A program made the position numbers. 4,606 nucleotides of DNA from the IMG/VR virus record IMGVR_UViG_2737471846_000015. One strand, 5' to 3'. Source of the stretch: a virus. Taxonomy: Duplodnaviria; Heunggongvirae; Uroviricota; Caudoviricetes. Below are positions 1-3,000 of this stretch, in pieces. Numbering within the stretch: the first letter of the stretch is position 1; every line of letters begins with the position of its first letter.

Positions 1-3000
1 CAATTCAATGCCGTCAAGAGATTACAGGCTAAAAAAACTCTATTACATAGCAGCCAGCATGTTTACCGTACAAGTACAACTCAGGGCATAAAAAAACCCA
101 CTCGGCAGCGGGTTTATACATTTTTTACAACATACCAAATTTGCATGAAGTATATGGCTTTTAATCCAGTTTTGCAATATTTTGCTGTAAAAATGCTGCC
201 TTTTGTTTTGAACGTGTTCTCGTCACAAGCAATAAAGCATCACTATCAAGCTGTAGAAAAATGTGCTTCATTGCAACCCAGCGTTCAGTAAATGTCTCGG
301 ACCAGTTTTTTGTTGTCACTCCCACCAATGATGCCAGTGTCTGGTATTCATAGGCCTCACGCCCTGCAAGTTCGCTCTTCACATCCTGTGCAGCCAGCCA
401 GATTAACGTCTTCAGGCGATCCAGTGTCTTACCTGCAATTTTTCTGTTACTTAACAAATCTTTAAACTCGCTCCATGCCCATTGCGTTATGGTGACCTGA
501 TGCCCCCATCGAACGCTTTCGCTGTAACACTAAAGCAACCATGCTTTCTGATGTTCATCGAGAGACAAAACCGCGCGGCGCCATGAAGAGGTTGAGAATT
601 CAACCGGGCTGACCAAAGCAATGGATGAACCTTTTGCGTACGACTGCTTACCGGAAGTCGGCGTATTATCCAGCGTAATCATCTTGCCAGTTACCACATC
701 CAGAATGCGCGGCTTCTTTCGTTTGTATGTACCAGTATCAAATTGTGCATGCTCCAGCCAGGCTTCGAGCTGGCCTTTCGTTGCTCCGTTCAAGTCAGCA
801 GTAGCTGCCATAAGTTGCTCACGAACATACTGTAAATATTGGGTATTCATGCAGTAAATCCTTTCTATATTTTGGCATAATTCTTCAACATTCGGTAATC
901 GTTCAAAACCGAATCGGGGAAACGACATAAGCACAGGAGCCCCCAGCGACAGCGAAGGAGTTCTGATATATAAGACTCAGACATCATTCATTCCCCGGTT
1001 CTCCAAAATCTGTTTCACTCATCATCCATAACTACCTGTAATTGCCCCCCCTTTTTTTGTAACAGTTCTTATATTGCTATATAGAATAGCCATTACTAAT
1101 GCATTTAAATCCAATAAAATAAAAATTATAAAAACATAAAACACCACGCAAACACACTTAATAAAACACCGTTACATTAAAAGATAATAAAAACCACAAT
1201 AAAAAACGAATAAATCAATTATCTCACGCAATTATAAAACATCATATTGATTACGCACCTTGTATTACAAACTCATGTATGTAAAATACGCGCACCATTC
1301 AAAAAAAAGGAAGACAATAACATATGAAAAAAAGTGTCATCGCTGGCGTCTTTATTGCTCTGTCATTTACCACGTGTTCAGCTATCGCGAACAGCCTTGC
1401 ATTATCATTAGCAAATGATGATGCAGGGAAGTTTCAACCAATACTTAATGATATTTATGGCAATAAACATGAAAACAGAGATGATTACTCACAAGGCTTA
1501 TTTCTGGGATATAGCCACGATATCTCAGACTCGAGCCAATTATCTCTCCATATTGCGCAAGATATTTACTCTCCATCAGGCAGTAATAAAAGACACAACA
1601 CAGCTGTAACTGGAGACAGAGCTTTTAGTGCATACACTCACACTGGTATTGAATGGAACTCCCTTGCGAATGACTGGATTCGCTATCGATTAGGTACTGA
1701 CATAGGTGTTGTTGGCCCCGACGCAGGCGGTCAGAAAGTACAAAATAAAGCTCATGAGATTATTGGGGCAGAAAAATATCATGCATGGGATGATCAAATA
1801 GAGAATCGCTACGGTTATACTGTAAAAGGGATGCTATCCATGACACCAAGTATGGATATTTTAGGTGCTAATGTTGGATTATACCCTGAAGTTTCTGCTG
1901 TTACTGGAAACTTATTTCAATATGTAGCATATGGCGCAACCATTGCCATTGGTAATGATAAAACCTTCAATTCGGATAATGGCTTTGGTCTGCTGGCTCC
2001 CCGTGGTTTAATGCATATGTCCGATACAAGCGGATTCAAATACAAGATTTTTGCAGGTATGGAAAGACGAGATGTCAATCGCAACTATACTCTCGAAGGA
2101 AAAACAATACAGACGAAACAAACAACAGTATCGCTAAACAAAACTGTTGATGAATATCAAGTTGGCGCAACAATTGGGTATGCACCTGTAGCCTTCACAC
2201 TAGCATTTAATAAAGTAACATCAGAATTCAAGACAGGGGATGACTATTCATTTATAAATGGAGCAATCACCTTCTTTTTTTAACTGAATTGAATTCAATC
2301 AAAATAACATAAGTCCAACAAAAACATAAAGTGCGAAATGAATGCCAGATCCATTTATTTCGCACTATAAAAGATTAAAGGTTGCAATAAAATAATAAAA
2401 TGACTCAGTTACGAAAACCAATAAACTGTGGCCAGTAGTGAGTCGCTCATCATCGGGCTTTTTGGCGAATGAAATTTAGCTACGCTTTCGAGTCTCATGC
2501 GCCTTCTCCCTGTACCTGAATCAATGTGAGGTTTCCGCAGAACACTGCGCCAGTATCGATATACATCTGGTTGGCAAATTTGAGTGGTTTCACTGCTGGC
2601 GTATGACCAAAGATGAACGTGTCCGCGCCTTTGATTTCTTTCACGATCCCGTCTTGTGAGTTGCTGATTCGTTCGCGGTTCCAGATTACCTGCTGATGAT
2701 CAACTGGCTTTCCAAACTCGTATTTATCACAAGGATAATCGGCGTGGCAGATGACATATTTTTTTCCTTTACTCACCAGTTCGATGATTAACGGAAGTTC
2801 ATCTGCTTTATGGGCAAGAGCTTTAGCCAGAATTTCTTTGTCGTAATCGAGATTAAAGAACCAGCCACCGCCATTAAGCAGCCAGTGATTGACGTTTCCA
2901 CGCTCTGATAAGCCATCAATCATCATTTGCTCATGGTTTCCACGTACAGCTCTGAACCAGGGGAATGTGATTAATTCCAGGCATTCTACGTTCTCTGTAC

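Follow-up and report, generated by a model that had tools for sequence, protein, structure and literature searches.

We conclude with high confidence that the stretch of viral DNA analysed here (4,606 nt in its full length, hereafter the window) carries the amber-broken Q82-type late antiterminator gene, Q, of a decayed Escherichia coli prophage, and that the break is most likely a product of neutral decay. Set against intact alleles, codon 107 has gone from TGG to TAG through one G>A transition in the coding strand (C531T in plus-strand terms), and translation would be expected to end after 106 of the 229 residues. The C-terminal 123 residues, among them most of the positions that are invariant in the family, would no longer be made, and this truncation points to a loss of Q function. 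The broken gene is itself known and ordinary: it belongs to a known family and sits in a known module, and its nonsense mutation has already been flagged by public annotation.

Reading frame and family of the interrupted gene

The features of the Q region that bear on this assignment are listed below in the reading direction of Q, with the evidence for each in brackets.

865–987, minus strand: ylcG-family small ORF of 40 aa, directly upstream of Q (NCBIfam NF033498; RefSeq and phage 434 annotation)
859–864, minus strand: Shine-Dalgarno-like AAAGGA, 8 nt upstream of ATG 850 (sequence; a ribosome-binding site is annotated at the equivalent place in the phage 434 record)
161–850, minus strand: late antiterminator gene Q of the Q82 family (PF06323), a pseudogene by one amber codon (Pfam; RefSeq annotation; likeness to the Q of phages 434 and 82)
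533–850, minus strand: N-terminal 106 codons, the sole part translatable from the native start (PF06323 positions 1–103; Logan contig product)
530–532, minus strand: TAG amber at codon 107, which is TGG (Trp) in intact alleles (DNA alignment; 55-mer counts; nine family members)
161–529, minus strand: C-terminal 122 codons and stop, now untranslated (PF06323 positions 105–216; invariant columns Y109 to L206)
172–185, plus strand: TTGC-N6-TTGC, the CII-binding consensus, in a candidate paQ antisense promoter (sequence; phage 434 record)
149–177, minus strand: candidate late promoter PR', TTGCAA and TATACT spaced by 17 nt, overlapping the Q stop codon (promoter scan; conservation; putative function)
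129–137, minus strand: TGGTATGTT, −10-like, a possible sigma70-dependent pause element for the loading of Q (conservation; putative role by analogy with the 82Q mechanism, PMC4914094)
87–115, minus strand: intrinsic terminator with a 9-bp stem and T tract, candidate tR' for Q to override (terminator scan; annotated in the phage 434 record)

The original prediction had described two ORFs, 161–457 and 530–934, as one gene of ~257 codons split by a single TAG. On the minus strand of the window the two ORFs do share one frame: translation of 161–1000 on that strand meets a single internal stop, the TAG at 530–532 (which reads cta on the plus strand), and the 24 codons that follow it at 458–529 are open. 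The start of the downstream ORF is as weak as had been proposed, since the earliest possible restart past the TAG is TTG 457, which is without a Shine-Dalgarno sequence and would omit residues 107–131, including the invariant Y109 and W126. The predicted length, by contrast, has to be revised. Q comprises 229 codons and a stop and begins at ATG 850 (MNTQYLQY...), a start common to phage 82 Q, the RefSeq annotation and the curated phage 434 record, the last of which expressly notes an MNT start for close homologues. The 28-codon extension to GTG 934 overlaps the ylcG-family ORF at 865–987 (NF033498, 48 bits against a cutoff of 30) in a different frame, and its GC3 is 0.36 as against 0.43–0.48 in the gene; the small ORF accounts for the open frame that had been added to Q. 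Comparison of codon usage and GC3 between the two halves of Q, which had been proposed as a check, yielded no meaningful difference (GC3/GC of 0.48/0.48 and 0.43/0.45) and adds nothing beyond the profile match.

Both halves of the frame belong to a single protein domain. The upstream piece, 533–850, matches PF06323 (Phage_antiter_Q) over positions 1–103 of 220 with 143.3 bits, and the downstream piece, 164–529, matches positions 105–216 of the same profile with 148.3 bits, such that the TAG falls at profile position 104, within the domain; an intact allele scores 306.8 bits (cutoff 25) over positions 1–216. Because the two pieces match adjacent parts of one PF06323 domain, they represent one gene and not a chance juxtaposition. 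Lambdoid late antiterminators fall into three unrelated families, of which PF06323 represents the Q82 family (PMC9388147). The protein of the intact E. coli O157:H7 allele is 100% identical to phage 434 Q, which is labelled 'Q82-like', and shares 203 of 229 residues (89%) with phage 82 Q without gaps, and the window Q differs from this O157/434 allele by two nucleotides.

The genomic position agrees with the profile match. Genes of the nin region lie upstream of Q within the window, and holin, lysozyme and Rz-type lysis genes lie downstream of Q in O157 Xuzhou21 and LI60C3, so that the gene has the nin region on one side and the late promoter with the lysis genes on the other, in the lambdoid late-antiterminator slot to which it had been assigned. 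The central proposal, that one ancestral gene in this slot had been inactivated by an amber codon, is likewise upheld by the two PF06323 halves and by homologues that are single proteins with a sense codon at the position of the stop. With TAG at codon 107, a full-length Q82-family reading frame is absent from the window copy, which is a pseudogene of the family and not a working member. A non-coding leader at 161–529, which the original prediction had entertained, does not fit the data: the stretch is coding (PF06323 positions 105–216), and the candidate late promoter, pause element and terminator lie downstream of 161. Among NCBIfam models none matched Q. A search of the intact Q protein against all PDB chains returned chance matches only, with E values of 0.12 and above, and no structure of a Q82-family protein is solved.

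Alleles of codon 107 and decay of the prophage

DNA alignment gives TGG at codon 107 in O157 Xuzhou21 and in the ~88% DNA-identical LI60C3 allele, as against TAG in the window and in strain 2013C-4830. TGG is also found in phage 434, and it is one of the three sense codons that had been guessed for 530–532. Phage 82 Q has Trp at position 107, and nine of nine diverse family members, down to 25% identity, have Trp or Tyr there and none a stop. The family alignment contains 14 invariant residues, nine of which are C-terminal to codon 107. Allele counts were obtained with 55-mers centred on the variable base, for which a central mismatch leaves no 28-base megablast seed. The TAG allele is rare: its 55-mer occurs in two of 5,426 complete E. 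coli genomes and the TGG 55-mer in 618, for a total of 620 genomes with either allele.

The two TAG genomes, 2012C-4227 and 2013C-4830, are near-identical to each other at the Q locus, and in both RefSeq annotates the 'bacteriophage antitermination protein Q' as pseudo with an 'internal stop'. Strain 2012C-4227 is O165:H25 and positive for both stx1 and stx2 (PMC4683243). The window differs from both genomes at two of its 4,606 bases, positions 756 and 2380; as neither variant is present in either complete TAG genome, the TAG allele occurs on two slightly different backgrounds. Position 756 lies in Q codon 32, where the window encodes Leu, as does phage 82 Q, and O157 and phage 434 encode Gln. 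Positions 1–2498 of the window are identical to a Logan contig from run SRR2239577, which also carries the TAG and on which the exact 106-aa product is called. A look-up of that exact product returned two short contigs, the one shown being 2.5 kb long.

In both complete carriers the gene resides in a prophage remnant of ~12.8 kb adjoining mlrA. Lambdoid early regions contain immunity, replication and recombination genes together with the promoter driving Q. In both carriers the methyltransferase gene and an integrase fragment beside mlrA have been brought almost into contact by an IS3-family element, so that the whole early region between them is missing. On the other side of Q, IS600 cuts the late region ~1.1 kb past the gene; all that remains there is a membrane-protein gene of 744 nt, a DUF3927 gene and one gene fragment, followed by tail-fibre fragments and nleG7. 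The window's own genome is outside the complete set, and its prophage context is presumably that of these two carriers. Q alleles influence toxin output when they lie upstream of stx genes; in the genomes examined, no stx gene is present downstream of this Q copy.

The closest TGG genomes, those of sister strains 90-3040 and 2013C-3492, are 99.85% identical to the carriers across IS600, Q and IS3, with identical junctions, and the IS truncations therefore predate the amber mutation. Both sister strains have an intact Q and a ninG gene annotated with an 'internal stop', which is a CAG>TAG change at codon 142 (window position 3345; extracted loci 11156–11767). This ninG amber is an independent mutation in the same decaying element, and different nonsense codons in different genes of sister lineages of one remnant are what neutral decay predicts. 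TGG and TAG strains also differ outside the remnant. The segment between two IS600 copies (yehR, yehS, btsR, btsS and a DinI-like gene) is inverted between them (TAG-strain locus 1–10053 compared with TGG-strain locus 1–6556), and ~2.7 kb comprising nleG7 and tail-fibre fragments adjoins the remnant in TAG strains only.

Candidate late control elements and alternative readings of the stop

The mechanism of 82Q provides a guide to the DNA downstream of the reading frame. 82Q recognises a Q-binding element close to the late promoter, loads onto RNA polymerase that has paused at a −10-like, sigma70-dependent element, and contacts the beta flap-tip helix; it afterwards moves along with the polymerase, together with NusA, and prevents termination ahead of the late genes (PMC4914094; PMC9388147). 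In Q82-type loci down to ~48% protein identity, the PR'-like hexamers TTGCAA/TATACT are kept. The pause-like motif TG(G/A)TAT(G/T/C) is present in all six aligned loci, and hexamers and TG(G/A)TAT motif alike persist where the Q proteins are only ~48–65% identical. A hairpin followed by a T-run occupies the same place in five of the six. The pause-like element at 129–137 spans roughly +6 to +14 relative to the presumed transcription start, and the homology of many divergent phages stops at window position 128, directly past the motif. Promoter and pause element are best regarded as candidates, assigned by pattern and conservation and not by a match to the mapped phage 82 PR' site. On the plus strand, the TTGC-N6-TTGC at 172–185 is perfect and corresponds to the CII site and paQ −35 element of the phage 434 record; it shares bases with the palindromic TTGCAA, which is the −35 hexamer of the late-promoter candidate on the minus strand.

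All three sequence elements, promoter-like, pause-like and terminator, are still present downstream of the broken gene (177–87). Without Q, transcripts from the putative promoter at 177–149 would be expected to stop at the terminator at 115–87. Judging from the visible carriers, the mutation would have arisen after loss of the Q-driving promoter region and of nearly all Q-activated genes. The phenotypic cost of the truncation is probably nil, because the remnant retains almost nothing downstream of Q and no early promoter upstream. The original prediction had raised a possible effect on late-gene expression or inducibility, a question that is moot in the two visible carriers, where the early region and almost all late genes were lost earlier.

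One nonsense mutation alone does not tell neutral loss from selected loss. Under selected inactivation, the amber would silence leftover membrane-protein genes driven from PR', or the 106-residue fragment would act in its own right, for example as a dominant-negative inhibitor of Q82-type antitermination by superinfecting phages. Such a scenario could draw on the retention of a start and ribosome-binding site by an otherwise almost unchanged N-terminal ORF, on the intact promoter, pause element and terminator, and on the two small downstream genes that are also intact (the 744-nt membrane-protein gene and the DUF3927 gene). We nonetheless judge it very unlikely, given that the TAG allele is found in two of the 620 genomes with the gene, that the sister lineage combines an intact Q with a nonsense codon in another gene as random decay predicts, that the early region with the Q-driving promoter had already been deleted, and that an N-terminal Q82 fragment is without known activity. 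There is little reason to expect that the amber allele is non-neutral, whether through a dominant-negative 106-residue fragment or through leftover PR'-driven genes whose expression depends on rare UAG readthrough or suppression. Full-length Q would still be made if an amber suppressor tRNA decoded the UAG or if readthrough were programmed, and late expression would then be conditional. Suppressor dependence had been offered as a reading of the split frame, which is indeed open on both sides of a single UAG and undecayed in its downstream half. However, the open downstream frame is accounted for by the recency of the mutation, the gene being two nucleotides away from an intact allele. The stop is moreover unconserved (TAG in 2 and TGG in 618 genomes; a stop in none of nine diverse members), hardly any late genes remain in the remnant for Q to control, and neither a tRNA gene nor an Rfam family or recoding RNA element turned up when the window was scanned. 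The suppressor-dependent reading therefore finds no support, and we consider it highly improbable.

Gene callers report products of 106 aa and 98 aa on the Logan contig, as might be expected if Q had been split into two functional polypeptides with 161–457 starting independently. This reading is contradicted by the homologues, since all those examined, at identities between 25% and 100%, consist of one ORF of ~200–250 aa, and two separate conserved genes were found in none of them; nor is there a credible restart, as TTG 457, the only one, has no Shine-Dalgarno sequence and would cost the protein its invariant Y109 and W126. We regard two separate genes as barely conceivable. An error of sequencing or assembly in the window deserves next to no credence either: although the difference is a single base, two genomes that were closed independently and the assembly of a separate run all have the same base, and these independent assemblies contradict the explanation.

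Neutral decay of an already truncated prophage accordingly stands as our preferred reading, and beyond correct annotation the break in Q matters very little. It does illustrate clearly how a cryptic lambdoid prophage decays by single point mutations, with an amber in Q in one lineage and in ninG in another. Two lessons for sequence scanning also emerge: when one stop divides a same-frame ORF pair, both parts should be compared with a domain profile, and the mechanical choice of the first start codon, here GTG 934, gave too long a gene.

Comparison with related phages and antiterminator families

Upstream of Q, the window preserves further parts of the module. A fragment of ~24 codons at 2427–2498 on the minus strand corresponds to the N-terminus of a lambda-type Q and overlaps the end of the phosphatase gene; RefSeq describes it as an incomplete 'antitermination protein' and the phage 434 record as a lambda Q N-terminal fragment. 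It has the look of a leftover from an old exchange that put an lpxR-ylcG-Q82 module in place of a lambda-type Q. A gene for an LpxR-family lipid A deacylase (PF09982, 137 bits) lies on the plus strand at 1324–2283, between the nin genes and Q; this moron-like insert recurs in phage 434 and in hundreds of prophages of Shiga-toxin-producing E. coli. Beside it lies a very AT-rich spacer of 336 nt (988–1323), upstream of ylcG and Q, containing a C7 T7 homopolymer pair at 1045–1058 in which the window has one C more than 90-3040 and 2013C-3492; this length difference could be a sequencing artefact or a slippage polymorphism.

The founder of PF06323, phage 82 Q (CAA63332.1, X92588.1), likewise has 229 codons and an MNTQYLQY start, and a ylcG-like small ORF (orf45) precedes it as in the window. 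The two differ in the nin region, which in the window is lambda-like (ninE, ninF, ninG and phosphatase) with the lpxR insert and in phage 82 contains rus and orf96. Phages lambda and 21 fill the same slot with a Q that does the same job, loading at polymerase paused near PR' and allowing readthrough of tR' (PMC9388147). Their proteins, lambda Q (PF03589) and phage 21 Q (PF06530), nevertheless belong to families unrelated to PF06323, with no sequence similarity to it.

The same Q allele is found in prophages of E. coli O157:H7, O145:H28, O111:H8 and others (WP_001097238.1), where the gene is ~99% identical to that of the window and is flanked by ylcG and lpxR in the same way. These prophages differ from the window in having TGG at codon 107 and Gln rather than Leu at residue 32, and in O157 Xuzhou21 the lysis genes still follow Q. 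With the nin-Q region of phage 434 (OL657226.1) the window shares an entire gene order: methyltransferase, ninE, ninF, ninG, phosphatase, the lambda-Q N-terminal fragment, lpxR on the opposite strand, ylcG, Q82-like Q, terminator, membrane protein and DUF3927/TciB. Over the last 330 nt of the Q region their identity is 99.4%, and nin-lpxR-ylcG-Q82 modules of the phage 434 type are widespread among Shiga-toxin-producing E. coli. The two differ in that phage 434 is complete and viable with an intact Q, whereas the window carries the amber allele and its closest genomic relatives are IS-truncated remnants.
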